The notes below the pieces were generated by a model. The model did not search any database and was not told where the DNA came from. It saw only the letters and a program-made list of their open reading frames with translations. From assembly GCA_963772155.1 (NCBI GenBank), contig CAVYVX010000016.1:8469-72468 (forward strand): a DNA stretch of 64,000 bases. The letters run 5' to 3'. The translations under genes were made by a program, and so were the position numbers. The DNA comes from an uncultured Acidobacteriaceae bacterium (GTDB taxonomy: Bacteria > Acidobacteriota > Terriglobia > Terriglobales > Acidobacteriaceae). The first letter of the stretch is position 1. Every line of letters starts with the position of its first letter. This document shows, piece by piece, positions 17,603 through 36,514 of this stretch.

Positions 17603-17769
17603 ATAGAAACTGTGTGAGAACTACGATTTCAGAGTCGCGGGAGAATGGACCTAACGCTTTTCAGGCGCGAAGCGCCATAAGAATGCAGCCCACGGCGTCA
17701 GCCGTGGGTTCAAGTGGAAAAGCAACAAGCCCCAGCGGGGCGAAAGATGAGTTCTCACACAGTCTCTAT
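17603..17769. mobile_element. MITE-like element with 20-bp terminal inverted repeats
   Basis: ATAGAAACTGTGTGAGAACT (17603-17622) against AGTTCTCACACAGTCTCTAT (17750-17769), 1 mismatch. Internal hairpin CCCACGGCGTCAGCCGTGGG. Confidence 0.65.
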
Positions 17770-19872: not shown

Positions 19873-20009
19873 AGCCGCTTAAGCATGTCAAGAGAAAAAT
19901 GCTATAATTATCACAAGAAGTTCGCCTTCCCCGTGCGGCCCGGAATTTTGCTCTTGTTCTATACTGCTTTTAGAGAGATAATTCGCGCCGAACGCATTGG
20001 GAGGAGTTT

Positions 20010-20252
20010 ATGGCCTTGGAAAAAGAACTCGCGACGTACAAGAGCAAACTCCCCGAATTGAAGGGCAGTGAGGGCAAATTCGTCCTCATTCATGGTGATG
20101 ACGTAGTTGATACATTTACCAGCTACGAGGACGCCATCAAAGAAGGGTACGCTCGTTTCAAACTGGAACCGTTTCTTGTTAAGCAGATACAGGCGATTGA
20201 ACAGGTACAGTTTGTCACTCGCCTCATAGCGCCGAGCTGCGCTACAACTTAA
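20010..20252 (+). CDS. small conserved hypothetical protein, upstream partner of the retropepsin-like gene
   Basis: GGGAGGAG RBS. MALEKELATYKSKLPELKGSEGKFVLIHGDDVVDTFTSYEDAIKEGY.. The stop overlaps the next start as TAATG. Confidence 0.55.
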   Translation: MALEKELATYKSKLPELKGSEGKFVLIHGDDVVDTFTSYEDAIKEGYARFKLEPFLVKQIQAIEQVQFVTRLIAPSCATT

Positions 20253-20695
20253 TGCCACATTTTACCCGGCAGTTGACAAACAACGCGCCTATCATCACCG
20301 CCGTGTTGCGCGTGACACAAGCCCGTGCCGACGCTTTGGCGGCTGTTCAGCAACAAGTACCTCAGCCGCAACGAATGAATGCGATGGTTGATACCGGCGC
20401 GAGTTGCACTTGCGTAGACCCCGCAATTATTCAATCACTGGGTCTGTCTCCTACTGGCAGCACTCTAATGTTCACTCCTTCAACGGGAGCGCAAGGGCAC
20501 ATCACCGATCAATTCGATGCGAGTCTCCAGATTTACCGTACCACTGAGGAACCGCCTTTAGAAATCCCTGTCATAGCGGTAGTGGCTTCTGATTTACGTG
20601 CCCAAGGAATTGACGCATTGATTGGGCGGGATGTATTGCAGCATTGCTTGCTTTCATACAATGGTCAGGAAGGTTTTTTCACGCTAGCTTTTTGA
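20252..20695 (+). CDS. retropepsin-like (clan AA) aspartic protease
   Basis: MVDTGAS (the D-T/S-G catalytic motif) and ALIGRDVL (retropepsin flap/dimer motif). Confidence 0.65.
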   Translation: MPHFTRQLTNNAPIITAVLRVTQARADALAAVQQQVPQPQRMNAMVDTGASCTCVDPAIIQSLGLSPTGSTLMFTPSTGAQGHITDQFDASLQIYRTTEEPPLEIPVIAVVASDLRAQGIDALIGRDVLQHCLLSYNGQEGFFTLAF

Positions 20696-21007
20696 TTTCT
20701 TCCACCGCGCCCTAGCAGCCTTCGTCGCTACTTTGCTGCGCTCTGCCCTTGTCATGGTCTTCATTCGCCGTTTCCCGCCGATCTGACCGCCCTTGCGCCC
20801 GATTGCAGCCATGTACGCGGAGAGATCAGGAGGTGCGGCTATTGGCGGTTCTGGTGGGCCTTGCGGCGGCTCTGGTGTCTCGCTTGTCGAGTGGTCTACA
20901 ATCCACTTCGCAAGCTGGTTTGGGTCACGCGGACGTTTGCCCTTGCCGATGGTCACGAAACCATCATGCCACAATCGGGATGCTAAAGCGAGGCTGTGAA
21001 TATCCAA
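20684..21007 (-). CDS. small basic hypothetical protein (KRPRDPNQLAK... GRKGG...ARW tail)
   Basis: Likely GTG start at 20954-20956 (VTIGKGKRPRDPNQLAKWIVD). No function recognised. Confidence 0.45.
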   Translation of the reverse strand: MDIHSLALASRLWHDGFVTIGKGKRPRDPNQLAKWIVDHSTSETPEPPQGPPEPPIAAPPDLSAYMAAIGRKGGQIGGKRRMKTMTRAERSKVATKAARARWKKSKS

Positions 21008-21060
21008 ACTGACCCACTACCCAAGGCAGGCATAATTGGCGACAAGATGATTGAGGATCT

Positions 21061-21582
21061 ATGATGAAAATTTCTGTTCTTCTTGTACTCTGTCTGATGT
21101 TGAGTGCCTTCAGCGTTGCTCAAGAATTCCCACAGGTAGAGGTATTTGGCGGCTACTCATACATGCGTTTCGCAAACGCACTTAACCTCAACGGCTGGAA
21201 TGGTGCAATGCAGTATAACGTCAACCGCACGGTTGGGATCAAAGCAGATGTCAGTGGTCATTACGACACTCCTTATGGTGCTCTCAATTCCTACAGTTTT
21301 CTCTTTGGGCCTGTGTTTTCCACTCGAGTTGAAGGGTTCACCCCCTTTCTCCATGCGCTTGCTGGTGCGAACCGGATTAGCACAAGCATTGACGGGCTAA
21401 GTGCCTCTGACACCGCTTTTGCGATGGCGTTTGGCGGCGGTGTGGACATAAAAGTGGCTCACCGTTTTTCCGTCAGGCCGGTACAGGTAGATTACCTTTT
21501 CACGAAGCACTTTACCGCCATGCATCAAAACAACGTCCGCGTGTCCGCTGGCTTAGTATTCGAGCTTGGCGGGTACAAGTAA
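21061..21582 (+). CDS. small outer-membrane beta-barrel protein (OMP_b-brl type)
   Basis: Signal peptide MMKISVLLVLCLMLSAFSVAQ. Alternating aromatic/Gly strands (VEVFGGYSYMRF ... VSAGLVFELGGYK). Confidence 0.65.
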   Translation: MMKISVLLVLCLMLSAFSVAQEFPQVEVFGGYSYMRFANALNLNGWNGAMQYNVNRTVGIKADVSGHYDTPYGALNSYSFLFGPVFSTRVEGFTPFLHALAGANRISTSIDGLSASDTAFAMAFGGGVDIKVAHRFSVRPVQVDYLFTKHFTAMHQNNVRVSAGLVFELGGYK

Positions 21583-22155: not shown

Positions 22156-22817
22156 TCCGCGCACAAGAGTAGTTTCATACACTTAGACCGCGGCAGATGG
22201 CATCTTTCGCGGCTAATGCCACGCAATTCCGTGTGAACGGCACGGAAACGGCACGGGTACGAACACGCTAATATAAAGCAGCATAGAGCGCAACGGCTCG
22301 CGGAATTGACCGCAAGGCGCGGATGGTATAGGCGCTTATTCCAGGCGGACCTCGCGACCGCACAAGCGGAGCGGTTCATGGCACGGCCTATGGAAATCAG
22401 CCGCGACACGGGAGGCACAAGCGGCGAGCGTGGGCAGGCGAGAGGGAGAACGGGATATTTTTGCGCTAATTTGTGGGGCTAGAGCGGGATTTGTGGTCTG
22501 CCAGTCAAATCGGCTCCCGGCCACTAAACTTGACGGGATTCTGCCAATTGCCAGTTACTCAACCGAGCCTTATTCCCATCCGGCTTTTCCCGCGCTCGTG
22601 ACCTCACATCCTATTATGATATTTCTCCTTGACGATAGTGATTCTTTGGCCTAGCGTGGCCGTGTCGACAGGAAACGAGTTTCCACCTTGGTTTCGCCGA
22701 GCACGCCGGAGCACCCTTTTGCACTGGGCCTCAACCGTCGCGCCCCCTCCCAGGCACCGTTTCCCAGTTCAAAAGGGCGATGTCGAATTCAATTCCATAT
22801 TGGTTAAGGGAAGAGTT

Positions 22818-25800
22818 ATGAATAACTCAGCGCCACATCGCAGATGGATTTCAGGAATACGCGCGGGTGCCCCACAGTCTGCCCTGAGCTTGTCGAAAGG
22901 TCTCGCGCTCTTCGAGAAGTGGGATCGAGTGTGCGCTATCCGCGCGGCGCTGGCGTTGGCGATCTTGCCGTTTACCATTCCAGGACAAGCACAACCATCG
23001 CCACAGGTATTGCACAATCACGTCCGCCCGGTAGTTGCCCGCGGGCAGGCCGTGCCGGTGGGTCATCTTCCCCTCACCCAGCATCTGCAACTCGCCATCA
23101 TGCTGCCGCTCCGCAACCAAGCTGAACTAACCAGCTTGTTGGATCGGCTTTATGACCCCACCAGCCCCGACTACCGTCAATTTCTCAGCGTGGCCCAGTT
23201 CACCAAACGGTTTGGGCCCACGGAGCAGGATTATCAAGCGGTGGTTGATTTCGCCAAGGCCAACGGTTTCAAGGTGACCAACAGGCCACCGAATCGCCTG
23301 CTGGTGGATGTCAACGGCTCGGTCGAGCAAATCAACAAGGCTTTCCATGTGACGATGATGGTCTATCGGCATCCCACGGAGGGCCGTACTTTCTATTCGC
23401 CGAACCGCGAACCCTCGCTCAATCTGAGCGTGCCCGTGTCGCACATCGCCGGGCTGGATAATTTCTCCATACCGCGTCCCATGCTGATGAGAGCACCAGC
23501 AGGGAAGGCGATTCGCAGCAACCTCACCGGCTCGGGTCCGGGCGGTTCCTATCTTGGCAGCGATATGCGGGCGGCCTACTACGGCGGCGCCGCGTTCACC
23601 GGCAATGGTCAGGCGGTCGGACTCTTGGAATTTGGAGGCTACAACCTCAGCGATGTGGATTTGACCTTTACCACTGCCGGACAAGCCGTTCCCAGCGTCC
23701 CCATCAACAACGTGCTACTGGACGGCGCAAGCGGAGGCGCGAACGGCAACGATACCGAAGAGGTGCTGGACATTGTGCAGGCGATTTCCATGGCCCCCGG
23801 CTTGAGCCAGCTCCGCGTCTATATCGGTTCGAGTGACGTGGACATATTTAACCAAATGGCCACGGAGAATCTTTGCCAACAACTGAGCGTTTCGTGGGCC
23901 TGGTATCCGGATGACCCTTCGTCGGACGATCCCATCTTTCAGGAGTTTGCGGCGCAGGGTCAGAGTATTTTCGTCGCTTCCGGGGATTGGGGTTCATACC
24001 CCAGTTCGACCAAACCCTATTATTTCCCTGCGGAAGACGCTTACGTGACGGCCGTCGGCGGGACCGATTTGACCACTACAGGCCCTGGTGGTCCGTGGCT
24101 TTCGGAGACAGCGTGGACACCTGACAGCGGCGGCGGCATCAGCCCCGACGGCATTTTGATTCCGAGCTGGCAGGCAGGGATGGCCAATACCTCGAACGAC
24201 GGTTCCACAACTTATCGCAATGTGCCGGACGTGGCCGCGGAAGCCAATTTCGACAACTACGCCTGCAACATGGGCGTATGCGAAGGAGGTTGGGGAGGCA
24301 CCAGTTTCGCGGCGCCACGCTGGGCTGGCTTTATGACGTTGGTCAATCAGCAGGCGGTGGAGGCAAACAATCCAACCGTGGGTTTCATTAACCCGGCAAT
24401 CTATACGATCGGCGAGGGTTCCAGTTACAACAGCGACCTACACGACATCGTGAACGGGAATAACTGCGATGGTGGCACTCCGTGTTACTACGCCGTTACA
24501 GGCTATGATCTGGTGACAGGATGGGGAAGCCCGAACGGGCAGAATCTGATCAACGCTCTAGCGGGGTTCGCGGCGCCAGGCTTCACGCTTGTGGCTTCGC
24601 CGAGCGGCTTATCCATTGAACAGGGCGCTCTCAGTACAACCACCATCACGGTGCATGACTTAGGAGGATTCACCGACAGCGTTGATATGGCCATCTCTAA
24701 CCTGCCCAGCGGCGTGACCGCACAGTGGGGCACAAATCCAACCACCGAAACCAGTGTGCTTACGCTGACGGCCAGCGGCACGGCCACCCTCGGAACGGCC
24801 TATGTGACTATCACCGGAACCTCTGGAACCTTGGTCACGACCACAACCATTGCTCTAACCGTTATCCCAAACTTTGCACTTTCGGCTAACCCGAGTATTT
24901 TGACTATCCAACAAGGCGTATCCGACACAACCACCATTACGGTAACCGACGTGAGCGGATTCAGCGGCAGTGTAACTCTGGCTGTGTCCGGCCTACCCAA
25001 CGGCGTGACTGCACAGTGGAGCACAAATCCAACCACCGGAACCAGTGTACTTACACTGACGGCCAGCGCCACGGCCGCTCTTGGGACGACAACGGTGACC
25101 ATCACCGGAAGCTCTCCTGGTGTCCAGTCCGCAACCACCACGCTTACTCTCACGGTCATTCCGTTTACGTCCGCCGCCCAAGAGAATATCCTTCTTTCGT
25201 TTAACGGTCTGGACGGCATGACCTCCCTGTCCGGACTCGTGGCTGGACCGTCGGGAAACTTCTATGGAGTCACTTCGATTGGAGGCCATGGAAACTGTGC
25301 CGACTGGGGCGGCGGAGCCGGCTGCGGCACAGTCTATGAACTTACCTCGCCGGCCGAGAGCGGCGGAGCGTGGACCGAAACTGTTCTTTATAACTTTCAG
25401 GGGGGCGCAGATGGCGACGAGGTTGTGGCGAGCTTGATCCTCGACGCGCAAGGCAACCTTTACGGAGTGACTGAACTAGGGGGCGGCGGTAGCTGTACCT
25501 ATGGTTGCGGAACGATATTTGAACTTAGTCCCCCTGCCACGCAAGGGGGCAGTTGGACTAAAACGACTCTATATACATTTCAAGGAGGGATGACAGACGG
25601 TTCTTATCCTGAGGGAACGCTGGTTTTCGACGCAAAGGGAAATCTTTACGGTACTAGCTTTTTTGGCGGCGGCCCGAACTGCGGGGGTTACGGGTGTGGA
25701 ACGGTATTTGAATTGAGTCCCTCGAAAACAGGTGGTGGTTGGAGCGAAACTGCGCTCCATGTTTTTGTCGGACCGGACAACGGCGACGGGTACCTTCCGA

Positions 25801-28046
25801 ATAATAATCTTGTTTTCGATGCCGAGGGCAATCTGTATGGCACTGCCGATTCTGGCGGGGCCTACAACAATGGGGCCGTATTTGAGCTGAGTCCCCCGAC
25901 CGGACAGGGAGGAAAGTGGACGGAACAGGTGATTTACTCATTCATCGGCGCACCTGATGGAGCAAATCCGGAAAGTGGTCTCACGCCCGGCGCGAATGGC
26001 GTCTTTTACGGTGTAGCTTCAGGCTCCGGGCCGGCTGAATATGGAACGGTTTATCAGTTAACGCCCCCTGCCCCGGGCAGCAGCCAGTGGACGCTCGCAG
26101 TGTTGTTCGGCTTCAACCTGAAAGCGGCAGGCGGCAATCCGGGGGGACCGCTCGTTCTCGATGCGAGCGGGAATCTTTATGGAACGACTGCGGTGGGTGG
26201 GGATTACTCCTGTCCTTCCCCGTACAACGACGGATGCGGGGTTGTGTTCGAGTTGGTCAACTCCTCGGGCAGGTACAGCGAAAACGTGCTGCACAGCTTC
26301 ACCGGCACTGGTGGAGACGGAATCCAGCCCGAGTCCGGCTTAATCATGGACGCACTCGGCAACCTTTATGGCACCACCGAACTTGGCGGCACCCAAGGTT
26401 ATGGGACCGTGTTCGAGATTGCCAGCCCAACTACCGCAACGCCGGGCTTTACGCTTTCGGATTTGCCTGGCAGTCTGTCCATTGTTCAGGGCGCGTCCGG
26501 TACCAGCACCGTCACGGTGACCGACGTGAACGGATTCACCGGCAGCGTAACTCTGGCCGCATCGGGCTTGCCCAGCGGTGTCACCGCAGCGTTCGGCACG
26601 AACCCCACCACCGGAAGCAGCGTGCTCACGCTGACCGCGAGCAGCACGGCCACTATCGGGACGGCGACGGTGACCATTACCGGCACCTCTGGCAGCCTGA
26701 CCGCAACCACCACGCTTGCGCTCACAGTCAAAACCTTTACGGCCACTTCATTGACTTCATCGTTGAATCCGTCGAACTATGGGCAGGCGGTGACGTTTAC
26801 GGCAGCGGTTGCGCCCGCGCCGCCGAATGGAGAAACGATCACGTTTATGAACGGCATCACGGCACTGGGAACAGGGACGTTGAGTGGAGGGTCGGCTAGC
26901 TTCGCAACTTCGGCGCTGGCAGGGGGTACTTACTCGATCACGGCGGTGTACGCCGGGGACTCCAACTTCTTCGGCAGCACGTCGAACACAGTGAGCCAGA
27001 CAGTCAATCCGGTTAGTCAGAGCATCACGTTCACCACAAATGCACCGGCGAGTGCGGCGTACAACAGCAACTTCACGGTGGCGGCCAGCGCCAGCTCGGG
27101 CTTGGCGGTGACATACACATCTTCCGGGTCGTGCAGCAACTCAGGCGCGACGTACACCATGACCGGCAGCACGGGAACGTGCTCGGTGATTGCCAACCAG
27201 GCGGGCAACAGCAACTATTTGGCGGCGCCGCAGGCGACAGCGTCCGTGACTGCGACTCGGGCAAAGCAGAGCATCGTGTTCACGTATGTGCCGAGCAGCG
27301 CAGCCTATAACAGCAACTTCACGGTGGCGGCCACGGGCGGCGCCAGCGGGATCCCCGTGACCTTTACGAGTGGCGGGTCATGCAGCACTGTGGGCGCGAC
27401 GTACACCATGACGAGCGGCACGGGAACCTGCACGGTGATTGCAAACCAGGCGGGCAACAGTAACTACTCGGCGGCGCCGATGACGACAGCGTCCGTGACT
27501 GCGACTAAGGCGACGCAGAGCATCGCGTTTACCATAAACGCACCGGCGACGGCGGCCTACAACAGCAACTTCACCGTGGCGGTCAGCGCCAGCTCGGGCT
27601 TGGCGGTGGGTTACACGTCTTTCGGGTCGTGCGGCAATGCGGGCGCGACGTACACCATGACCAGCGGCAGCGGAACGTGCTCGGTGATCGCCAACCAGGC
27701 GGGTAACAACAACTACTTGGCGGCAACGCCGGTCACGCAGAACGTGACTGCGACTCCGGCGACGCAGAGCATCACGTTCACCCGGAACGCACCGGCGAGT
27801 GCGGCGTACAACAGCAGCTTCACCGTAGCGGCCAGCGCCAGCTCGGGTCTGGCGGTGACTTACACGTCTTCCGGGGTGTGCAGCAATGTGGGTGCGACTT
27901 ACACCATGACGAGCGGCATGGGAACGTGCTCGGTGATTGCCAACCAGGCGGGCAACGGCAACTACTCGGCGGCGACGCCGGTTACGCAGAGCGTGATTGC
28001 GGACAAAGGCACGCATAGGCCGCGAAAGCTGGTGGACCCACGGTGA
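22818..28046 (+). CDS. giant secreted S53 (sedolisin) peptidase with Ig-like modules, GloVer-type repeats and 83-aa tandem repeats
   Basis: Pro-kumamolisin-like propeptide (LDRLYDPTSPDYRQFLS). Ser motif GGTSFAAP. Three about 95-aa Ig-like modules. Seven G-x-[LF]-Y-G...G-T-[VI]-[FY]-[EQ]-L repeats. A Big_3-like domain. Four 83-aa repeats. ATG at 22818. An alternative GTG at 22929 gives a cleaner signal peptide. Confidence 0.8.
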   Translation: MNNSAPHRRWISGIRAGAPQSALSLSKGLALFEKWDRVCAIRAALALAILPFTIPGQAQPSPQVLHNHVRPVVARGQAVPVGHLPLTQHLQLAIMLPLRNQAELTSLLDRLYDPTSPDYRQFLSVAQFTKRFGPTEQDYQAVVDFAKANGFKVTNRPPNRLLVDVNGSVEQINKAFHVTMMVYRHPTEGRTFYSPNREPSLNLSVPVSHIAGLDNFSIPRPMLMRAPAGKAIRSNLTGSGPGGSYLGSDMRAAYYGGAAFTGNGQAVGLLEFGGYNLSDVDLTFTTAGQAVPSVPINNVLLDGASGGANGNDTEEVLDIVQAISMAPGLSQLRVYIGSSDVDIFNQMATENLCQQLSVSWAWYPDDPSSDDPIFQEFAAQGQSIFVASGDWGSYPSSTKPYYFPAEDAYVTAVGGTDLTTTGPGGPWLSETAWTPDSGGGISPDGILIPSWQAGMANTSNDGSTTYRNVPDVAAEANFDNYACNMGVCEGGWGGTSFAAPRWAGFMTLVNQQAVEANNPTVGFINPAIYTIGEGSSYNSDLHDIVNGNNCDGGTPCYYAVTGYDLVTGWGSPNGQNLINALAGFAAPGFTLVASPSGLSIEQGALSTTTITVHDLGGFTDSVDMAISNLPSGVTAQWGTNPTTETSVLTLTASGTATLGTAYVTITGTSGTLVTTTTIALTVIPNFALSANPSILTIQQGVSDTTTITVTDVSGFSGSVTLAVSGLPNGVTAQWSTNPTTGTSVLTLTASATAALGTTTVTITGSSPGVQSATTTLTLTVIPFTSAAQENILLSFNGLDGMTSLSGLVAGPSGNFYGVTSIGGHGNCADWGGGAGCGTVYELTSPAESGGAWTETVLYNFQGGADGDEVVASLILDAQGNLYGVTELGGGGSCTYGCGTIFELSPPATQGGSWTKTTLYTFQGGMTDGSYPEGTLVFDAKGNLYGTSFFGGGPNCGGYGCGTVFELSPSKTGGGWSETALHVFVGPDNGDGYLPNNNLVFDAEGNLYGTADSGGAYNNGAVFELSPPTGQGGKWTEQVIYSFIGAPDGANPESGLTPGANGVFYGVASGSGPAEYGTVYQLTPPAPGSSQWTLAVLFGFNLKAAGGNPGGPLVLDASGNLYGTTAVGGDYSCPSPYNDGCGVVFELVNSSGRYSENVLHSFTGTGGDGIQPESGLIMDALGNLYGTTELGGTQGYGTVFEIASPTTATPGFTLSDLPGSLSIVQGASGTSTVTVTDVNGFTGSVTLAASGLPSGVTAAFGTNPTTGSSVLTLTASSTATIGTATVTITGTSGSLTATTTLALTVKTFTATSLTSSLNPSNYGQAVTFTAAVAPAPPNGETITFMNGITALGTGTLSGGSASFATSALAGGTYSITAVYAGDSNFFGSTSNTVSQTVNPVSQSITFTTNAPASAAYNSNFTVAASASSGLAVTYTSSGSCSNSGATYTMTGSTGTCSVIANQAGNSNYLAAPQATASVTATRAKQSIVFTYVPSSAAYNSNFTVAATGGASGIPVTFTSGGSCSTVGATYTMTSGTGTCTVIANQAGNSNYSAAPMTTASVTATKATQSIAFTINAPATAAYNSNFTVAVSASSGLAVGYTSFGSCGNAGATYTMTSGSGTCSVIANQAGNNNYLAATPVTQNVTATPATQSITFTRNAPASAAYNSSFTVAASASSGLAVTYTSSGVCSNVGATYTMTSGMGTCSVIANQAGNGNYSAATPVTQSVIADKGTHRPRKLVDPR
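27018..28015 (+). repeat. four tandem 249-bp coding repeats
   Basis: Units start at 27018, 27267, 27516 and 27765 (QSI[TVA]FT...SV[TI]A[TD][RKP][AG][KT]). Similarity to the repeat consensus stops after ACGCA at 28011-28015. Confidence 0.8.
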
Positions 28047-28362
28047 GCTTCCCCGGCCCAGGCTCGGCCGGTTGCCCTGGTCCTACGATCAAGTGTGGCG
28101 CGTGTACCAGAAAGCCGGTGCTAAAGCTGGCATCGGCGGGCTCGGTACGCACTCGCTGCGTCACACGTATAGAAGTTGGCTGGACAGTGTAGGGACCCCG
28201 ATAGCCGTACAGCAAAAACTCATGCGTCACGCGGACATCCGTACCACAATGAATATTTACGGGGACATCGTGACGGATGAAATGGCCGTAGCGAGCGGGA
28301 AAGTTGCTCGGTTAGCGCTGAACGGCACGGGAAGCGGCACGGGAACCACCGCAACTGATTGA
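28016..28362 (+). pseudogene. tyrosine recombinase (phage integrase) C-terminal remnant
   Basis: GTHSLRHTYRSWL...LMRHADIRTTMNIYG holds the HxxR box and catalytic Tyr region. The N-terminal two thirds or more are missing. Lies 5 nt from the tRNA-Lys 3-prime end. Confidence 0.75.
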
Positions 28363-28367
28363 AAAGA

Positions 28368-28443
<76 letters not shown>

Positions 28444-28695: not shown

Positions 28696-28842
28696 TCACC
28701 ACCGCGCAGCAACGAAAAACCCCGATGCCCCGCATCCATAACCTCTCCGGCCGCCCCGCTTTGGCGGCCGTTAATTAAACGATAAGGGGTGACAAAGTCT
28801 GGTTGCAGTTAATACGACATTTTCTCGTTGCAGCAACACAAC

Positions 28843-29241
28843 TCACGGCCCACCTTGCAAGAGAACAACCGGCTGACTGGATTTCGAATAGAAATGGCAA
28901 TCGAAACAATCAGGATGCAGGTTCACGGCGTTGTGGCACTTGTCGCAGAACCGGGTCTTGTCCTTGTGGCACTGGCTGCAACTATTCAAGGTGACCTCGT
29001 TTCGGATCCCATCCCGCACCGCCTTGTCCCTGAGTTCGTAGAGAAGGACCTTGTGGTTCTGTCGCATCCAGCCGATGTCTCGGACACAGCGCTCGGAGGG
29101 GGAAGACGAAACCTCCAGGAACGGTTTTTGGGGAAATATGGAGAGCCATGCGAAACGCCCCGCGCTGTACGCGAATGGGGACAGAATGATGACACCTGCG
29201 AGGGCTGGAAAAAGCCATGCCGGAGGTCTATTCGGCTTCAT
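28843..29241 (-). CDS. membrane-anchored triheme cytochrome c, DsrJ-like
   Basis: ATG at 29239-29241 lies 5 nt after GGAGG. N-terminal anchor AWLFPALAGVIILSPF. Three CxxCH motifs (CSQCH, CDKCH, CFDCH) in the last 45 aa. Extra Cys in SERCVRD. Overlaps the qmoC stop by 14 nt. Confidence 0.6.
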   Translation of the reverse strand: MKPNRPPAWLFPALAGVIILSPFAYSAGRFAWLSIFPQKPFLEVSSSPSERCVRDIGWMRQNHKVLLYELRDKAVRDGIRNEVTLNSCSQCHKDKTRFCDKCHNAVNLHPDCFDCHFYSKSSQPVVLLQGGP

Positions 29242-30430
29242 GAAGACCTCCCAGCGGCTGCCGGCCAGTATGCTCTGCATACACCATCGCAGTGGCGCGG
29301 TAGATCATGTGGGCGAACTTGGAGTAGGGCAGCAGCACCAGCAGCGCGAACACAGTTGCGAGGTGGATGACGTACATCGCATAGCGGAGCGGGTCCACGC
29401 GCGCGTAGTGGAGAACCTCGCATCCGAATCCCGTAAGCACCGCAGCCGCCGCTAAGCCAAGAAACGTCCAATCGAACCAGGTTCCCTTACGGCCCGTGCC
29501 AGGCATTCGGTCGCGAACCATTCTGTCGCGGATCATGAGGGCGCACCCGATCAGGAGGGCGACACCCGCCAAATTGGCGAGGATCTTCCAGGGGCTCCAA
29601 AAGTTGAAGGGGTAAGCGAAACCATTCCCGAGCAGCGGGTTGAATCGAGCGGTCAGTACCCAGAGGTCCACGACGAGCAAGCCCAGAAAGCCAAAAAGAA
29701 CGAGCCGGTGGGAATTCATCCGCGACCGTTCAGCCGTGCACAGATCAAAGTCCTCATGCAGGATGATCCTGCGCAACGCCGATCGAACGCTCGCCATAAG
29801 CGATTGCGTTCGGCCCGTGCGTCCGGCCGCGCGGTCGCACGCCTTCAGGTCGCGCCAGAAGCGCATCACGCCCCAAGCCATTGCCACCGCATCCAGGAGC
29901 GCGAATGGCGCGAAAAATCCGATCAGGAGCCACTGCGGCAGTTGGCTCCAGTACGAAATGACGATGTGATTCGGGGTGGACGAAGCGGCGAAATACTTTT
30001 CCAATGGCGCGCGTATCCACACCATCAAACCCAGCAGTATGCACGGAATAAGCAGCAGGAGCGGCAGAGAACCAGGCCGGTTCACCCAATTGCCCAGCCA
30101 GCGCGGCACGCTGTAATGGACAATGGCTTCCCTCCGAATCGCCGCCATTACATCCCCTGGCCGCGCACCACGCGGGCAACGCAAGGAGCAGTCGTTGCAC
30201 TGATAGCAAAGCCAGACGTCTGGATCCGCGAGCAGCCGGTCTTTCAGGCCCCACTGCGCCCAAATCATTTCTTTTCGCGGAAAAGGCTTCTGGGCGCCGG
30301 AGAGTTCGCAAACCACCGAGCACATGGCGCATTGGAAACACTTCTTGAGGTCTTCGCCTCCGCTCGCCATGAGGCGATTGCGGAACTCTCTATCCGGCAG
30401 TATGCAAGCGGGAGTGGGCGTCGTCGTCAT
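29228..30430 (-). CDS. qmoC: quinone-interacting membrane-bound oxidoreductase subunit C
   Basis: HdrC-like CFQCAMCSVVCE and CYQCNDCSLRCP, followed by a multi-helix NarI/HdrE-like membrane domain. Position after qmoB. Confidence 0.85.
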   Translation of the reverse strand: MTTTPTPACILPDREFRNRLMASGGEDLKKCFQCAMCSVVCELSGAQKPFPRKEMIWAQWGLKDRLLADPDVWLCYQCNDCSLRCPRGARPGDVMAAIRREAIVHYSVPRWLGNWVNRPGSLPLLLLIPCILLGLMVWIRAPLEKYFAASSTPNHIVISYWSQLPQWLLIGFFAPFALLDAVAMAWGVMRFWRDLKACDRAAGRTGRTQSLMASVRSALRRIILHEDFDLCTAERSRMNSHRLVLFGFLGLLVVDLWVLTARFNPLLGNGFAYPFNFWSPWKILANLAGVALLIGCALMIRDRMVRDRMPGTGRKGTWFDWTFLGLAAAAVLTGFGCEVLHYARVDPLRYAMYVIHLATVFALLVLLPYSKFAHMIYRATAMVYAEHTGRQPLGGLHEAE

Positions 30431-30436: not shown

Positions 30437-32716
30437 TCAGCCCTTGAATGGGTTGAGACCCACGGCATCGATCTGCGCGGCAAACTCGTCGATGAGCGCC
30501 GGCAGCCGGTGGTAATCGGAAAGGGCGATTTCCTCGATGCGTACCCGCTGCTCCTCCAGAGCGAGTTGAAGAAGTTTCTGGCGTATGTTCTCACTGCGCG
30601 TACCCATCAACTCGCTGCCTCGTATGAAGTGGCACTGGTAGTCGTCGCCCGACTTGCATCCCAGCAGCAGGATGCCGTCGAATCCGTGCGCCAGCGCGTC
30701 GGCAATCCAGATCACATTGACCGCTCCCAAACACCGCACTGGAATCACGCGCACAAAAGGACTATAGCGAAGACGAGCGATGCCGGCGGCCTCCAGTGCG
30801 GGCAATGCGTCGTTTTCGCACGCCAGAATTAAGAGCCGCGGCTTCTCCTCGAATGCGTCGGGAATGTTCACCGCTTTGATCATCGAGGAGACGATGTCGA
30901 TCGAATAATCGCCAAATGAAATGATGCGCTCCGGGCAAGCGCCGAGACAGATGCCGCAGCGGCGGCAGCGCCCCGGATTCGGAAGCGGAGTGCCTTTGTC
31001 GTCCTCGTCGAGGCTGCCAAAGGGACACTCCTCAGTGCAGCGTTGGCACTGCGTGCAGCGCTGCATGTAAAAATCCGGGAAGGACAGATCGCCCCATCGC
31101 GGATGCAGGGTGACTCCCCGCGCGGTCAGCTCCACACATTGGATCGCCTTGAGCACCGCTCCCTCGGCGTCCGCGAGGCAGCCCTCTATATCGTTGGGCG
31201 CGCGCATACAGCCCGCCGCATAGATACCCGTCCGCCGCGTCTCGTAAGGGAAACAGATGAAGTGCGAATCGGGAAATCCGCCAGGCAACATCGGAAGGTC
31301 GGGACCCTGCCGATAGGTCAAGCGGAGCAGGTCCGTGCCCTCGTGCTGCCCCTGGTCCGCCACAAGCTGGCGTGCCCCGTCCAGTTGGGGCCCTGGTTGC
31401 CCCTTGTCAATGATGGCCCTGGCAATGATGGCCTTGGCATCGCGGACCTTCCGAATCGCTTCGCCATCGGCGGCAACCGGCACCATTCCCGTCGCCAGCA
31501 CCACGAGATCGGCCTCAACCTGGATTGAGGGTCCAAGCAGAGTGTTCTCGACGTTCACTTGCAGCCCCCGCGCGCTGCCGGCCTCAGCCGTAGTAACCGA
31601 GATCACATCCCCTTTCATCATGGATATTCCGGGGTCTTCTTGAGCGCGGCGATAGAAATCCTCGGACTGCCCCGGCGTGCGGATGTCTTTGTAGAAAATG
31701 TAGGCTTCAGCTTCCGGATCCAGCTCACGGGCCCACAGCGCCTGTTTCAGAGATACCCGACAACATACCGCGGAGCAGTAGGGAAGATGGGCTGCATCGC
31801 GCGATCCGGCACACTGCACGAATGCAATTCGCCGGGCTGGCCTGCCGTCGGATGGACGGCAAATCTGGCCCGTGGCCGCCAGACGTTCCATCTCGACATT
31901 GGTGATCACGTCGGGACTCCGGCCATAGCCAAGATGACCCAAGCGCGAGGCGTCATACGGCTTCCACCCGGTGGCCTGAACGATAGCTCCGGCTTGGGTA
32001 TGGACCGTCGAACCGTTGATAACCAACTCGACATCGAACTGACCGGGCTGGCCGCTGATGCTCTTGATCGCGGCAGATCGGTGAATCTGGATGCGGGGGT
32101 CTTTCTCCAACTGGAGAATCCAGTCGTTGAGATCGATGGCCTCCAGATCCCGGTACGGCGCGCTCTTGGGGAACTGTCGTTTGAAGGAGCGCAGCCATCC
32201 CCCGAGTTCGACCTCTTTCTCAACCAGCACGACCCGATAGCCTGCGCGGCTGGCCTCTCTGGCGGCGACCATCCCGCTGGGCCCACCGCCAACAACAAGG
32301 ATGGTACGGTCGGCGGCGATTTTGGCCGGTTCCCGAATCTCGGCCTTGAGCGCGCGCGCGATTCCCATGCGCAGGTTGTCCTCGGCAAGCATCTGCGTGT
32401 CTTCGTTGTGGGGTTCGTGGCTCCAAACCACCAACTCGCGCAAGTTCACCCTTTCCACGAAGCAAGAATCGAAGGAAAAAGTCTGGGAGTGAAAACGCCC
32501 TGAACAACCCGCAATGACCACCGATGCAAAACCGGACTGGATTCGCTCTTTGATCTGCGCCACTCCCTCATCGCCACAAAGAAACGAATGAGAGCGGCAA
32601 AGGCCCACGCAGCGCTCTTCAGCGGCAACTTTCTCGATGGCCGCCATGTCGAGCGAAGATCCGATGTCGCATCCGCCACAGATGAAGACCGCGACGTTTT
32701 TTTTCTCGTCAGCCAC
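30437..32716 (-). CDS. qmoB: quinone-interacting membrane-bound oxidoreductase subunit B (HdrA-like)
   Basis: MADEKKNVAVFICGGCDIG. FAD motif ILVVGGGPSGM. Ferredoxin motifs CTQCQRCTEECP and CRRCGICLGACP. MvhD-like C-terminus. Confidence 0.85.
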   Translation of the reverse strand: MADEKKNVAVFICGGCDIGSSLDMAAIEKVAAEERCVGLCRSHSFLCGDEGVAQIKERIQSGFASVVIAGCSGRFHSQTFSFDSCFVERVNLRELVVWSHEPHNEDTQMLAEDNLRMGIARALKAEIREPAKIAADRTILVVGGGPSGMVAAREASRAGYRVVLVEKEVELGGWLRSFKRQFPKSAPYRDLEAIDLNDWILQLEKDPRIQIHRSAAIKSISGQPGQFDVELVINGSTVHTQAGAIVQATGWKPYDASRLGHLGYGRSPDVITNVEMERLAATGQICRPSDGRPARRIAFVQCAGSRDAAHLPYCSAVCCRVSLKQALWARELDPEAEAYIFYKDIRTPGQSEDFYRRAQEDPGISMMKGDVISVTTAEAGSARGLQVNVENTLLGPSIQVEADLVVLATGMVPVAADGEAIRKVRDAKAIIARAIIDKGQPGPQLDGARQLVADQGQHEGTDLLRLTYRQGPDLPMLPGGFPDSHFICFPYETRRTGIYAAGCMRAPNDIEGCLADAEGAVLKAIQCVELTARGVTLHPRWGDLSFPDFYMQRCTQCQRCTEECPFGSLDEDDKGTPLPNPGRCRRCGICLGACPERIISFGDYSIDIVSSMIKAVNIPDAFEEKPRLLILACENDALPALEAAGIARLRYSPFVRVIPVRCLGAVNVIWIADALAHGFDGILLLGCKSGDDYQCHFIRGSELMGTRSENIRQKLLQLALEEQRVRIEEIALSDYHRLPALIDEFAAQIDAVGLNPFKG

Positions 32717-33995
32717 GATGAGGACTCACGCAATACTGGAGAGCTTTGAGCGCGGCGCTCGACGCATCGCGCACACAGGATGCGACGTCCATCGGACGCC
32801 GGGCACATCCCGCCGCAAAATGACCGGGCAGCGGCTGCGTACCCGACAAAAAACCATGGGGATCGCGGCTCAGCGCGCCCGACGGCAAAGCCGGATCTTT
32901 CCCAAGCGCCGGGACCATGCCCGCCGCCAGCACCACCAGACTTACTTTTTGGCGAATGCGGCTTTCGGCCAGCACGTCCTCAGCCTCGACCACCAAGTCG
33001 CCCGACGCTCCTTCCTCGGTTACCTTGGCCACTTTGCCTTTGATGAGATGAAGCTTGTCGTCCTTTTGGGATTCGGCAAGAAACAGCTCTTGCCTGCCCG
33101 GGGAGCGGAGGTCGATGTAGTAGACATAAATGTGGGCGTCCGGATATTGCGCCCGCACATACCTGGCTTGCTTGAGCGACGCCATGCAACAGACGCTGGA
33201 GCAGTGTTTGAGGTGGTTGTCGTCGCGCGACCCGGCGCACTGCACGAAGGCCACGCTTTCGATCTCCTTGCCATCGGAAGGACGGACGATCCGGCCTTTT
33301 GTAGGTCCAGATGGCGCCGCGAGTCGTTCCATCTGTACGTTGGAGACCATGTTGGCGTGGGCACCCAACCCCTCGACCACGCTCGCATCGAAGGGGTTCC
33401 ATCCCGTGGCCCATATTAGAGCCTGGACCTCAAACTCAAGGCGGAGCGCGGCCATCCGCAGGTTGATAGCATCGTAGGGGCAAGCCGCCACGCACTTGCC
33501 GCACTGCTCACCGACGCAGGTGGCGGGATCGATCGTGTATCGAAAGGGCCAGGCTAGGTCGCTGGGAAGGTATATGGCGCGGGTCGCTCCCATGCCGTAG
33601 TTGAATGCGTCGGAGCGCGATTCCGGACAGACCGCGACGCAGTCTCCGCAGGCCGTGCACCGTTCATTCACGAATCGTGGCTGCTGCTCGACCGTCACCC
33701 GATGGCAGCCGTCTTCGGTCCGCACCTCGGTCCGCACCTCTGCCACTTCCGACAAGGTAAGGCATCGGATGCGCGCGCTGCTGCGAATTCGCCGGAGGTT
33801 GATTTCGAGGCCGCACAACGGTGGGCAGAGTTTGGGAAAGTACTGATGCATCTGCGCCACGCGCCCGCCGAGATAAGCGCTGCGCTCGACGAGGATGACG
33901 TCGCACCCGGCCTCCGATGCCTCGATGGCGGCGGTGATGCCCGTGATCCCGCCGCCCACGACCATCACTGTGCCACGGCTGTCGCATCCTCTCAT
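32709..33995 (-). CDS. qmoA: quinone-interacting membrane-bound oxidoreductase subunit A (HdrA-like)
   Basis: VMVVGGGITGITAAIE. CTACGDCVAVCP and CGKCVAACP. An 8-nt overlap with qmoB. Confidence 0.85.
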   Translation of the reverse strand: MRGCDSRGTVMVVGGGITGITAAIEASEAGCDVILVERSAYLGGRVAQMHQYFPKLCPPLCGLEINLRRIRSSARIRCLTLSEVAEVRTEVRTEDGCHRVTVEQQPRFVNERCTACGDCVAVCPESRSDAFNYGMGATRAIYLPSDLAWPFRYTIDPATCVGEQCGKCVAACPYDAINLRMAALRLEFEVQALIWATGWNPFDASVVEGLGAHANMVSNVQMERLAAPSGPTKGRIVRPSDGKEIESVAFVQCAGSRDDNHLKHCSSVCCMASLKQARYVRAQYPDAHIYVYYIDLRSPGRQELFLAESQKDDKLHLIKGKVAKVTEEGASGDLVVEAEDVLAESRIRQKVSLVVLAAGMVPALGKDPALPSGALSRDPHGFLSGTQPLPGHFAAGCARRPMDVASCVRDASSAALKALQYCVSPHRG

Positions 33996-34090
33996 GGATT
34001 ACGTTCCCTTCATGGGGAGGGATCGAGCGCGTTGCGCTGGCTGCCCACTGCACGGACGATTGGATGAATCCGAAGCCGAAGCCGAATCCT

Positions 34091-36007
34091 TCATGGCGCG
34101 CTTTTCTCAGGCCGCTTGCCGACAATGTACTTCACCGGCCGCTTCATCATCTTCCACTGGCCCGTCGTTCGATCGAAGATGCAATTGCAGAAAGCCAGCC
34201 AGTCCTGGTTGTCGAGGGACGGCTTATCGGTGCGGAAATAGTATCCAGGCCACCGTGTCTCCTCGCGGAAGTACATGGACTGCACGTGGGCTTCGGCCTG
34301 GTGCAGGCGATGAACGCTCTCCCAGCAACGCATCAACTCGTGCGAGTTTTCGGCGGCCAGAAGCGCGGAGTCCGTCCTCAGAAATGCCAGAAGCTCCATG
34401 CCCTTTTCCAGGAGCTTGCCGCTGGTCTTGAACTGGCTCGACACGCCACCCGCATACTCGTCCATGATCTTCTGCAGGCGGTACATGAACTGTTTGGGAC
34501 GAAGATAGGCGGGGTTGACATCGGGGTCCGTGGTATTGGCTTGATTGGCCTGAAACACATCGAGGGGCTTGAGTATCTCGGACTTTAGAGTCTCGATCAA
34601 TGCGAGGTCAACCTGCGGGGCTGTGTTGTGGTCAGCGATGTAGGAAATGGCTCCTTTGGCCGCAATGCGCCCCTCGGTGAACGATCCCGAGGAGAACTTG
34701 TGACTCGATGCCCCGGACGCGTCGCCGGCGGCGAAGAGGCCAGCGACAGTGGTCATGTTGGGGTAACCCCAGCAGTACTCCGGCCTGGTCGCATCGTTCT
34801 GTAGGTCCGCGGGGCCGGAAACCCAGGCGCCGGAAGCGCCGGAGTGCGAACCGATGAAATAGGGCTCGCACGCCATGATCTCGGATGGTTTGACCTCGGG
34901 TTCGACATTGGTGGCGGCCCAGAGGATCGCTTGTGAGATGGTCATGTCGAGGAAGTCTTCCCACGCCTCCGACTCGAGTTCCTTGAGCTTCTTCTTGGCC
35001 GTTTTCTCGTCCGGCGACTCCTTTGCTATGCGCTGGATCGCGTCCGCCGTCTGCATGTAGATCGGCCCCTTGCCCTCCATCACGTCGAGCATCATGAGCC
35101 AGTTGCGCAGGTTCGCGGGCACGGGTTTGACGTGGCCGTAGGGTGCCCATTTGTCCAACTCGGCGGCGTTTTCGACCATGTAATCCTTGCCCGCGGCGTT
35201 GGTGGCGATGGCTTTGAAGAGCAGGAACCACGCACCCACCGGGCCGTAAGCGTCCTTGAAGCGCACCGGTATGAACCGGACTTCCTGGCAGGTCATCTCG
35301 GCCCCGGCGTAGATGGTGAAGAACGCGCTCGCTCCCGAGTTGAACGGCGGATACCAGGAGCGGCCGAACCCCTCTCCCGTGGAACGGGGCTTGAAGATAT
35401 GCACGGCGCCACCCATGGCCACCAGTGTGGCCTTGGCCTCGAACACGTACACGGTGTTCTCACGAGTGCTGAATCCGATTGCGCCCACGCACCGGTCGCC
35501 ATCCATCAACGGATGGGTCAGGAATACCCTCTCGAAGTACTGCCCTCCCGCTTCGGCCAGCGCGTTCTTGGCCGCTTCCGCCACGATGACCTTGTAGGAC
35601 TCGCCGTTGATCATCAACTGCCAGCGCCCCTCGTGCACGTACTTGCCATCCTTGTCCTTCCATATGGGAAGGCCCCACTTTTCAAAGAGGTGGACAGTGG
35701 AATCGACGTGGCGTGCGACGTTGGCGACGAGGTCCTCGCGTGTGATCCCCATCAAGTCGTTGCGGACGTAGTCGACATAGTCTTTCACGCTGTTGTTGCC
35801 GCTATTGAGGTCAACGTACATGTTGATGGCCGACAGCCCCATGGCGACGGCGCCGGACCGCTCCATCGCCGCCTTGTCCACCAACGTGACCTTCAGGCCG
35901 TGCTGGCGGGCCCAATAACTGGCTTCGACGGCCGCGCCGCAGGCAGCCATGCCCCCTCCGCAGATGAGTAGGTCCGTTTGCACGACTACGGTCTTGAAAT
36001 CAGCCAT
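34091..36007 (-). CDS. aprA: adenylylsulfate (APS) reductase alpha subunit
   Basis: FAD motif DLLICGGGMAACGAAVEA. Size and position directly after aprB. The ATG at 36005-36007 (MADFKT) lies 9 nt after AGGAG. Confidence 0.9.
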   Translation of the reverse strand: MADFKTVVVQTDLLICGGGMAACGAAVEASYWARQHGLKVTLVDKAAMERSGAVAMGLSAINMYVDLNSGNNSVKDYVDYVRNDLMGITREDLVANVARHVDSTVHLFEKWGLPIWKDKDGKYVHEGRWQLMINGESYKVIVAEAAKNALAEAGGQYFERVFLTHPLMDGDRCVGAIGFSTRENTVYVFEAKATLVAMGGAVHIFKPRSTGEGFGRSWYPPFNSGASAFFTIYAGAEMTCQEVRFIPVRFKDAYGPVGAWFLLFKAIATNAAGKDYMVENAAELDKWAPYGHVKPVPANLRNWLMMLDVMEGKGPIYMQTADAIQRIAKESPDEKTAKKKLKELESEAWEDFLDMTISQAILWAATNVEPEVKPSEIMACEPYFIGSHSGASGAWVSGPADLQNDATRPEYCWGYPNMTTVAGLFAAGDASGASSHKFSSGSFTEGRIAAKGAISYIADHNTAPQVDLALIETLKSEILKPLDVFQANQANTTDPDVNPAYLRPKQFMYRLQKIMDEYAGGVSSQFKTSGKLLEKGMELLAFLRTDSALLAAENSHELMRCWESVHRLHQAEAHVQSMYFREETRWPGYYFRTDKPSLDNQDWLAFCNCIFDRTTGQWKMMKRPVKYIVGKRPEKSAP

Positions 36008-36046
36008 GTTCATGTTCTCCTTAGGACTTTCCGAATCCTGAAACAC

Positions 36047-36514
36047 CTACAGTGTGGGAACCTTGTCTAGTTTGACCCGTCCAACTTCCGTGTTCAAACC
36101 CGCGGGCTCACACATCAATGTTGGACTCTTGAGATCGGCGTCGGCGGTCGGGTATTGATCGAAGGGCTTGGCTTTGCCCTCCGCAACGCCTCGTCGAATG
36201 GGGAAATTGAAACGCTTGGGCCGGATGTCCTGGTTGCGGAATTGCACGGTCCACAGGATGTCCTCGCTGCTTCGCATCGCGGTCACGTTCGCGCCCAGGG
36301 GAATGAAATCGGCATACCCGCGGACCTCGATGGCCTGCGTGGGACAGATCTTTACGCAGTTGTAACATTCCCAGCACATCGAGGGATCGCGGTTGTAGGC
36401 CTTCATGATCTGCGAGTTCAGCACCATGAGGTCGTTGGGGCAGATATACTGGCAGGCGGTCTTGTCGAGCGCCTTGCATCCGTCACATTTGTTCGCGATA
36501 ACAAAACTGGGCAT
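36047..36514 (-). CDS. aprB: adenylylsulfate (APS) reductase beta subunit
   Basis: MPSFVIANKCDGCKALDKTACQYICPNDLM...CWECYNCVKICP plus the characteristic C-terminal tail. Confidence 0.9.
   Translation of the reverse strand: MPSFVIANKCDGCKALDKTACQYICPNDLMVLNSQIMKAYNRDPSMCWECYNCVKICPTQAIEVRGYADFIPLGANVTAMRSSEDILWTVQFRNQDIRPKRFNFPIRRGVAEGKAKPFDQYPTADADLKSPTLMCEPAGLNTEVGRVKLDKVPTL

Follow-up and report, generated by a model that had tools for sequence, protein, structure and literature searches.

The question raised by this locus is why a small triheme cytochrome c resembling DsrJ, a subunit of the DsrMKJOP complex, should be encoded directly after qmoC. The locus lies in a 64,000-nucleotide (nt) stretch of contig CAVYVX010000016.1 from an uncultured Acidobacteriaceae bacterium, the whole of which is referred to as the window, and the gene, here named J, ends an aprBA-qmoABC-J block on the minus strand (Table 1). 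An earlier sequence-only reading had described it as an orphan DsrJ-like gene translationally coupled to qmoC. By homology and clade membership, J is assigned to a Qmo-dedicated branch of the DsrJ superfamily, distinct from the canonical one and as yet without a name. Its product is probably a membrane-anchored, periplasm-facing triheme cytochrome, whose ancestral setting would have been a qmoABC-J-O-P unit and which would here form QmoABC-J; O and P denote genes for a DsrO-like iron-sulfur (FeS) protein and an NrfD-like membrane protein.

The open reading frame (ORF) of J (MKPNRPP...QGGP*; full translation LFPALAGVIILSPFAYSAGRFAWLSI) runs from an ATG at 29241-29239 to a TGA at 28845-28843. 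Its length of 132 residues, the GGAGG 5 nt before the start (spacer TCTTC) and the 14-nt overlap with qmoC, which ends in a TAG at 29230-29228, were all confirmed as first described. An alternative in-frame ATG at 29280 would give a protein of 145 residues; the shorter form is favored because homologues begin at the position equivalent to MKPNRPP. A chance frame can be dismissed, since 27 close homologues (E 1e-42 to 1e-76) were obtained and exactly three CxxCH motifs occur in 121/121 family members retrieved. The protein features noted before were likewise recovered, namely an N-terminal membrane anchor, a cysteine at position 52 (within SERCVRD) and three CxxCH motifs (CSQCH 88-92, CDKCH 99-103 and CFDCH 112-116), all in the C-terminal 45 residues. 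As in DsrJ, the N-terminal helix of residues 10-35 is hydrophobic. Judging from the positive-inside rule and from the need to export the heme c domain, this anchor would be oriented N-in/C-out; it would probably be uncleaved. The DsrJ pattern of three CxxCH motifs preceded by a conserved Cys and a conserved His is present in J as well. When 65 proteins, qmo-linked J and canonical DsrJ together, were aligned, C52, H63 and all three CxxCH motifs proved invariant and M59 was at least 90% conserved. By analogy with the biochemistry and structure of DsrJ, Cys52, Met59 and His63 are candidate distal heme ligands.

Against the NCBIfam DsrJ profile (NF038038), J scored 64.7 bits (E=9.5e-18) over profile positions 16-121 of 121, without reaching the cutoff of 100. 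This near full-length match and the conserved ligand candidates bear out the DsrJ-like identity proposed earlier. Seven further qmo-linked J proteins scored 65.5-74.5 bits with the same profile and three canonical DsrJ proteins 128-175 bits, the latter including one from the dsrABCTMKJOP locus of another Acidobacteriaceae contig (L041; L and P numbers designate loci and proteins of this analysis). The window J shares 42-51% identity (95-106 bits) with qmo-linked J of other phyla, as against just 35% (54 bits) with the acidobacterial canonical DsrJ of L041. A neighbor-joining tree of 61 J sequences separated qmo-linked from canonical proteins in 200/200 bootstrap replicates; the canonical set was drawn mostly from Desulfobacterota, with a single acidobacterial member. 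The profile search and phylogeny that had been suggested as a check thus return a homologue of DsrJ that falls below the cutoff and outside the canonical clade, and J differs from the DsrJ equivalog in score, in operon context (after qmoC, not between dsrK and dsrO) and in clade. The identity to the L041 protein and the separate clade also rule out that J is a displaced copy of an ordinary dsrJ.

An exhaustive HMMER search of 1.84 billion representative sequences placed 904 clusters (50% identity, E<=1e-3) in the J superfamily. Among the best 150 of these clusters, 77 scored at least 15 bits better with a hidden Markov model (HMM) of qmo-linked J, and 56 showed the reverse preference, for an HMM of canonical DsrJ. 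NCBI records in the qmo-linked clade (P0028, P0036 and P0056) are named "hypothetical protein" and those of the other clade "DsrJ". A PDB sequence search with J and with an 18-sequence profile gave no match; no solved DsrJ was at hand for comparison. Canonical DsrP and DsrJ of the chromosome carrying L001 were absent from the best 120 matches.

In more than 60 loci, belonging to Acidobacteriota, Planctomycetota, Zixibacteria and metagenomes, qmoC is immediately followed by a gene of the qmo-linked clade, and the same holds for every clade member for which upstream context was recovered; the junctions are overlaps of 4-14 nt or short gaps. The survey of genes downstream of qmoC proposed at the outset accordingly upholds the coupling of J to qmoC and removes the label "orphan", as J belongs to a large family that occupies this position in many phyla, most of the loci continuing with O and P. 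The close relatives of the window J (63-86% identity) all come from Terriglobales/Acidobacteriaceae metagenome-assembled genomes (MAGs) and peat metagenomes and are arranged aprBA-qmoABC-J. Terriglobales loci with J-O-P were found in L001/L010 (5.25-Mb chromosome OY970265.1), L039, L042/L065, L064 and the locus of P0138. In these, O (239-243 aa) is of the Fer4_11 type and bears a twin-arginine signal (MSCSRRAFL...), P is a 381-385-aa NrfD protein, the overlaps measure 14, 4 and 20 nt, and both proteins pass the NCBIfam cutoffs for DsrO (256 vs 200) and DsrP (368 vs 350). Outside Terriglobales, the order qmoA-qmoB-qmoC-J-O(-P) was present in every clade member with recovered upstream context, namely in Planctomycetota (L012), other Acidobacteriota (L013, L014), Zixibacteria (L015, L035) and unbinned or unnamed contigs (L036-L038). 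The O protein of these loci also passes the DsrO cutoff; their P is a very divergent NrfD protein, which reaches 77-82 bits where the DsrP cutoff is 350 and shares 21-26% identity with DsrP. Within the group this P (L013 6819-7997, L035 11167-12381 and relatives) is 75-93% conserved and apparently represents an NrfD subfamily of its own, unnamed so far. The non-Terriglobales qmoABC-JOP is often followed by genes for a histidine kinase with a PAS domain and for a single-domain response regulator (L035-L038; L035 12431-14351), which may be dedicated regulators.

The gene after qmoC was also scored in JGI metagenomes, in the 80 top-ranking loci among at least 570 that carry qmoC. In this sample, ranked by likeness to the window QmoC, J follows qmoC in 49/73 informative loci, seven others being uninformative. 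The 49 comprise 28 loci with J-O-P, five with J-O before the contig end, eight with J before the contig end, five with J only (1.8-4.6 kb downstream without O or P), two with J-P and a precise deletion of O, and one (L100) in which O is present and J was undetected. The remaining 24 have no J, and sat follows qmoC in 14 of them. Despite the sample bias, the qmoABC-J arrangement is clearly common. In the acidobacterial MAG CO124, dsrA stands directly after qmoC, and its expression dataset is silent on Qmo-linked J.

The tie between J and QmoC extends beyond gene order. Natural QmoC::J fusions were found in P0251 (545 aa) and P0312 (561 aa), which belong to different QmoC/J clades and each consist of a complete QmoC, a short linker, and the helix and triheme domain of J. 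P0251 is identical on three contigs, two of them from different samples (JGI 3300072015, ENA ERZ23491197), in the context qmoA-qmoB-[qmoC::J]-O-P; P0312 also occurs on three contigs. Such a fusion is topologically sensible: with six helices and its FeS domain in the cytoplasm, QmoC would have a cytoplasmic C-terminus, on the same side of the membrane as the start of the J anchor.

QmoC itself differs with the presence of J. The 24 J-less proteins group as a single clade (100/100) in a tree of 81 QmoC sequences, and in each of the three predicted periplasmic loops they depart from every one of the 57 J-linked proteins; transmembrane segments were assigned from hydropathy. Position 341 is His in 57/57 J-linked and Arg in 24/24 J-less proteins, position 349 Arg in 57/57 and Ala in 23/24, and position 281 Trp in 55/57 and Met in 21/24, respectively. 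An insert of 3-5 residues at 154-158 is confined to the J-linked form, and one of 7-14 residues after 343 to the J-less form. His341 and Arg349 lie in the loop between transmembrane segments 5 and 6 (LHYARVDPLRY), which is probably periplasmic given the hydropathy pattern and the cytoplasmic N-terminal FeS domain. The window QmoC carries His341, Arg349, Trp281 and the 154-158 insert, and J-only loci, the window included, keep the J-linked form. This co-variation is suggestive of J working with QmoC, though it falls short of statistical proof.

The absence of O and P from the window is best read from related loci, which indicate that the J-only state is a secondary loss. The "orphan" condition is derived, since most qmo-linked J loci continue with DsrO-like and NrfD-like genes. 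In JOP loci the O gene begins with an ATGA overlap on the J stop, and every J-only Terriglobales locus keeps the first O codons at that exact position, cut at differing points (8-35 codons in the relatives). The longest remnant, in L002/L011, reads (L)SCSRRTLLVGIGAIAC... over about 35 codons with the start changed from ATG to CTG (tblastn E=0.002), followed by L008 (MSCSRRTFLV, about 10 codons), L004 (MTCSRRMFL, about 9) and L007 (MTCSRRTF, about 8). The window and its nearest relative L007 share 87-91% DNA identity from aprB through J, and homology breaks off at 28838, which is 5 nt beyond the J stop. The downstream flanks of J-only loci are unrelated to each other; two adjoin tRNA genes, tRNA-Lys with an integrase fragment in the window and tRNA-Leu in L002. 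Because the J-only lineages in the J tree (P0004; window/L007/L008; P0020) are interleaved with JOP lineages (P0013, P0006, P0011), at least three independent losses of O-P are needed. A second QmoC clade, sister to the Terriglobales QmoCs (99/100), likewise contains J-only loci (L066, L106, L119) and JOP loci (L069, L077, L087). J has thus been retained repeatedly beside qmoC after O-P loss.

Other rearrangements were seen in this set of loci. In L045 (6585-7757) and L046 (4999-6171), O is deleted and six of its codons (MTSSRR, a remainder of the twin-arginine signal) are fused in frame to the NrfD-like P, giving qmoABC-J-P without O. L097 (2050-3003) holds a tandem partial duplicate of J, nearly exact over about 90 residues and with one CxxCH left, which is probably a pseudogene. 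In L007, about 900 nt (4329-5227) separate aprA from qmoA, as against about 90 nt in the window (33997-34084), and aprA is split into two ORFs (2400-3782, 3505-4308), suggesting a frameshift or an assembly error.

After the loss of O and P, J appears to have been kept under purifying selection, as estimated from ratios of nonsynonymous to synonymous substitution rates (dN/dS, Nei-Gojobori). Pairs of J-only loci gave values of 0.18-0.32 for J (window vs L007, 0.32; window vs L008, 0.26; L007 vs L008, 0.23), compared with 0.22 for a pair of JOP loci and 0.15-0.26 for qmoC of the same genomes. No J-only J gene has lost its reading frame, any of the three heme motifs, Cys52 or His63. Each of the O-P deletions stops no more than about 105 nt beyond the J stop, which is consistent with selection shielding J as far as its stop codon.

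For the role of J, a DsrMKJOP-like scheme is proposed. The ancestral unit would be qmoABC-J-O-P, often after aprBA, with O as a DsrO-like four-cluster FeS protein exported by the twin-arginine pathway and P as a quinone-interacting membrane protein of the NrfD family. QmoC and DsrM are both HdrE/NarI-type cytochromes b, and QmoC has weak homology to TmcC and HmcE in NCBIfam. The layout would then be that of dsrMK-JOP, with the dihaem cytochrome b QmoC in the place of DsrM and QmoAB in that of DsrK. A 2026 cryo-electron microscopy preprint on DsrMKJOP of Archaeoglobus fulgidus places DsrJ at the periplasmic face of DsrM, as a bridge from DsrO to the hemes of DsrM. Electrons there pass from P through O, J and M to K, and one of the DsrJ hemes has a His of DsrO as a ligand; DsrM of JOP-containing complexes is reported in the same preprint to have a remodelled periplasmic side. 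By analogy, Qmo-linked J would dock on the periplasmic loops of QmoC, and its most likely role would be that of a heme wire on the periplasmic face of that subunit. In the full complex, P would oxidize quinol, with protons released on the periplasmic side, and electrons would run through the FeS clusters of O, the three hemes of J, the hemes b and then the FeS clusters of QmoC, and the flavins of QmoB/QmoA to AprBA, a path that could reverse during sulfite oxidation.

In the window, where O-P were deleted and J was kept, a QmoABC-J complex would remain, in which J probably still serves as a periplasmic heme extension of QmoC. How J might dock, which way electrons would flow and what partner would serve the J-only form can be outlined by analogy, with three options that we do not rank. 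Electrons could come from a partner acting in trans, either canonical DsrOP or some different FeS protein or cytochrome. The 57-58% identity of the lost qmo-linked P to acidobacterial DsrP makes canonical DsrOP a candidate in Terriglobales; SbA7, a related acidobacterium discussed below, carries dsrMKJOP on another scaffold than qmoABC. A soluble cytochrome c could instead dock on J, or QmoC could oxidize quinol at its own site with J contributing to assembly or to tuning of heme potential.

Several points weigh against this proposal. Expression, heme attachment and complex formation of the window J are all predictions. The J and QmoC trees are neighbor-joining trees of short proteins with partial taxon sampling. 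As the J-less QmoCs form one clade, the QmoC signature represents a single evolutionary transition and not 81 independent observations. Ranking by similarity to the window QmoC biases survey proportions such as 49/73, and QmoCs of Archaeoglobus, Chlorobi, Nitrospirota and Desulfovibrio may be missing from that sample. The O remnant of the window itself amounts to only about 5 nt and is insignificant alone, so that the case for loss rests on the longer remnants in relatives. The AlphaFold2 monomer of J has a mean predicted local distance difference test score (pLDDT) of 64, and its heme domain, at 38-57, is modelled too poorly for a structural docking test. Finally, the sixth ligand of one DsrJ heme is supplied by DsrO in DsrMKJOP, and ligation must differ where O is missing; no consistent compensating His or Met substitution was found in the J proteins of J-only loci. 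All O proteins aligned have an invariant His (H133 in L001 numbering). As a speculative candidate, the invariant periplasmic His341 of J-linked QmoC could contact the heme that loses its O ligand.

This missing heme ligand also favors a different explanation, in which J is a non-functional leftover of a degraded qmoABC-JOP unit that persists through its overlap with qmoC because decay has not yet arrived there. O and P are clearly lost, and other intermediates of decay exist, among them the O deletion fused to P in L045/L046 and the partial J duplicate of L097. Such a leftover is unlikely, however, in view of J-only dN/dS values no higher than those of qmoC or of JOP lineages, frames and heme motifs with Cys52 and His63 intact in every J-only locus, deletions that always stop shortly past the J stop, and a second clade with J-only loci; moreover, a 14-nt overlap cannot protect the other 385 nt of J. 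Were J a spare DsrJ for an ordinary DsrMKJOP, placed after qmoC merely for transcriptional convenience, its DsrJ homology and identical ligand residues would follow directly. SbA7, a subdivision-1 acidobacterium, indeed carries canonical dsrMKJOP on a different scaffold from qmoABC (Hausmann et al., where the gene after qmoC is not listed), and the qmo-linked O and P of Terriglobales pass the DsrO and DsrP cutoffs. We nevertheless hold this to be very unlikely, given that J forms a clade distinct from canonical DsrJ, the acidobacterial one included, that its linkage to qmoC is invariant across phyla, and that QmoC is found fused to J and co-varies with it in its periplasmic loops.

The same linkage and fusions speak for a subunit of Qmo rather than for an independent periplasmic redox enzyme or sensor, in which a His/Cys-ligated heme would react with sulfite, thiosulfate or polysulfide. 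The invariant Cys52 does match the His/Cys heme of DsrJ, and His/Cys hemes are known from SoxXA and TsdA in the literature. DsrMKJOP, however, is described as lacking thiosulfate or sulfite activity, and in the 2026 preprint substitutions of the Cys ligand of DsrJ left growth normal whereas deletion of dsrJ abolished it. A catalytic role of the His/Cys heme is thereby weakened for DsrJ itself, which acts as an electron bridge, and an enzyme or sensor function of J is quite unlikely. As a small membrane-anchored multiheme protein, J might also be a quinol dehydrogenase of the NrfH/NapC/CymA type or a relative of cytochrome c3, its likeness to DsrJ being superficial; a weak match to Pfam Cytochrom_c3_2 (PF14537; 17.7 bits, E=0.005, threshold 25) points that way. 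J has three hemes, NrfH/NapC being tetraheme, and in NCBIfam NrfH gave no match at E<=1 against 9.5e-18 for DsrJ; the c3-like and paired-CXXCH matches in Pfam were all below threshold. The profile searches effectively refute this identity, which is scarcely credible, and a Qmo-dedicated member of the DsrJ superfamily remains our preferred reading.

Table 1. Features of the aprBA-qmoABC-J block and its downstream edge (window coordinates).
Feature	Coordinates	Strand	Description or evidence
aprB	36047..36514	-	APS-reductase_C and Fer4 domains
aprA	34091..36046	-	maximal ORF, true start probably ~13 codons in; FAD_binding_2; 89-95% identity in related loci
qmoA	32709..33995	-	HdrA-like flavoprotein
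qmoB	30437..32716	-	HdrA-like and FlpD/MvhD domain; 84-91% identity to qmoB of related loci
qmoC	29228..30430	-	400 aa; HdrC-like FeS domain and six-helix cytochrome b domain; NCBIfam qmoC 378.8 bits, cutoff 300
QmoC loop LHYARVDPLRY with His341 and Arg349	29381..29413	-	J-linked signature between transmembrane segments 5 and 6; alignment and hydropathy
Ribosome-binding site of J, GGAGG	29247..29251	-	within qmoC coding sequence
J, Qmo-linked DsrJ-like triheme cytochrome c gene	28843..29241	-	132 aa; ORF, ribosome-binding site and overlap verified
J membrane anchor	29137..29214	-	residues 10-35, after basic K2 and R5; AlphaFold2 helix, pLDDT blocks 95 and 92
J candidate distal heme ligands Cys52, Met59, His63	29053..29088	-	C-x6-M-x3-H; conservation
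J heme c attachment motifs	28894..28980	-	CSQCH 28966-28980, CDKCH 28933-28947, CFDCH 28894-28908
Former O start	28838..28846	-	GTGAGTTGT (ATGAGTTGT in relatives); end of conserved aprBA-qmoABC-J block
Hairpin and terminator-like stem with T-run	28724..28768	-	GC-rich hairpin first; ~80-120 nt downstream of J; consensus match only
tRNA-Lys(CTT)	28368..28443	-	next feature downstream of J, beside synteny break; tRNA call
Phage-type integrase, C-terminal fragment	27997..28362	+	5 nt from tRNA-Lys; Pfam Phage_integrase, profile 104-166 of 172

The block upstream of J has the make-up of a Qmo locus, with QmoC above its equivalog cutoff of 300, qmoA and qmoB upstream and aprBA adjacent. No dsrM, dsrK, dsrO, dsrP or sat was found within the 64-kb window, which extends to the whole window the earlier remark that none of the four dsr genes flanks J; tRNA-Lys is the next feature, as first noted. 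When the window was searched by tblastn for remnants of O or P, nothing but weak matches to ferredoxin motifs emerged, within qmoB, aprB and similar genes. The hairpin downstream of J has a fold z-score of -1.6, which is not significant.

The integrase fragment probably marks a mobile island at the position where O-P would have been. It is overlapped by the 3' end of a 1805-aa pro-kumamolisin/Big_3_5 repeat ORF (22629-28046), and the segment 27997-28443 resembles a decayed margin left by an island that had inserted at the tRNA, precisely at the synteny break with relatives. The same variable region holds a 300-aa ORF (18970-19872, minus strand) with a weak match to IS1-type DDE transposases and, beside it, a small aspartyl-protease-like ORF (20252-20695). 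Elsewhere in the window, ARAGORN gave a transfer-messenger RNA call of 506 nt, flagged with an asterisk, on the plus strand at 60873-61378 (tag peptide AWDGVVSGACA); it is atypical in length and tag and may be a permuted form or a false call. An 893-aa ORF at 39968-42649 (minus strand) contains an enolase C-terminal domain (350-641) followed by a partial enolase N-terminal match (659-709), an odd order that would fit an ORF extended too far, or else an eno gene that was rearranged or duplicated. Among the related loci, L039, a Terriglobales-like MAG contig, carries two very large multiheme cytochrome genes (16970-21146; 665 aa and more than 800 aa, with faint MtrC/c7/c3-like Pfam matches) 6 kb downstream of aprBA-qmoABC-JOP. 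In L035, a CD-NTase and Cap15-like pair (18612-20167, minus strand), of the type of a cyclic oligonucleotide-based antiphage signaling system, lies a few kb from the Zixibacteria qmoABC-JOP.

Electron delivery by QmoABC to adenosine 5'-phosphosulfate (APS) reductase, and the energy conservation associated with it, is an open problem in sulfate respiration, for which J-O-P on Qmo offers a concrete and testable alternative architecture; the function of the module was clarified only by the 2026 preprint. The wider proposal is that in Acidobacteriota, Zixibacteria, Planctomycetota and many unbinned lineages the input complex of APS reductase is a DsrMKJOP-like QmoABC-J(OP), with NrfD-type quinol oxidation and an FeS/triheme relay to QmoC; in our judgment it stands at about an even chance. 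If true, the coupling of menaquinol oxidation to APS reduction would gain a second, structurally explicit solution, and the well-studied J-less Qmo might be the derived form. The repeated loss of O-P with J kept would be a natural experiment on the dispensable parts of the module. For annotation, qmo-linked O scored above the NCBI DsrO cutoff in every locus tested and P above the DsrP cutoff in Terriglobales, so that pipelines using dsrO or dsrP as markers of a complete DsrMKJOP may count Qmo-linked genes.

In the literature searched, figures and supplements lying outside its scope, no description of qmo-linked J or JOP was found; this literature included a large Dsr/Qmo synteny study, papers on acidobacterial sulfur cycling and the 2026 DsrMKJOP preprint. 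The locus therefore appears to combine known modules, QmoABC and a DsrJOP-type module, in a way not described before, the window holding the reduced QmoABC-J form. Described Qmo complexes are QmoABC, QmoAB-HdrBC and QmoAB-HdrD, none of them with a c-type cytochrome, and the earlier statement that Qmo lacks a periplasmic cytochrome agrees with that literature. Canonical QmoABC of Desulfovibrio, Archaeoglobus and Chlorobaculum has QmoA, QmoB and QmoC orthologous to those of the window and genes linked to aprBA; unlike QmoABC-J it is described without a c-type heme subunit or periplasmic module, and the J-less QmoCs sampled, mostly followed by sat, differ from the J-linked form in all three periplasmic loops. 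The fourth gene known from Desulfovibrio is presumably of another kind, its product not being known as a heme protein. This gene, DVU0851 ('qmoD', Dde_1114), the promoter-distal one of its operon, is presented as a hypothetical gene co-transcribed after qmoABC in a paper that cites Zane et al. (2010).

Among other known systems, J is closest to DsrJ of DsrMKJOP, with which it shares size, the N-terminal anchor, three C-terminal CxxCH motifs and the C-x6-M-x3-H arrangement; O- and NrfD-like genes follow DsrJ as they do most J relatives, and the heme-bridge role of J is proposed on this likeness. The two are 30-45% identical and differ in position, DsrJ being encoded after dsrK and J after qmoC, where in the window it stands without O or P; the Desulfovibrionaceae DsrJ compared here also carry an insert of about 11 residues that J lacks. 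The Tmc and Hmc complexes of sulfate reducers combine a periplasmic multiheme cytochrome c with an HdrE-like cytochrome b and a cytoplasmic FeS protein. QmoABC-J would share this design, but Tmc/Hmc use c3-type cytochromes (tetra- or hexadecaheme) that have no relation to DsrJ, and an HdrD-like protein is their cytoplasmic partner in place of QmoAB/AprBA. In cable bacteria, DsrMKJ has been described without OP in the complex, and an unknown external electron partner was proposed. There, as in the window QmoABC-J, a J-type cytochrome is kept with a cytochrome b and without O-P alongside; the partner, however, is DsrMK and not QmoABC, and DsrOP homologues persist in a separate tetraheme cluster, whereas the window locus has lost O-P outright.

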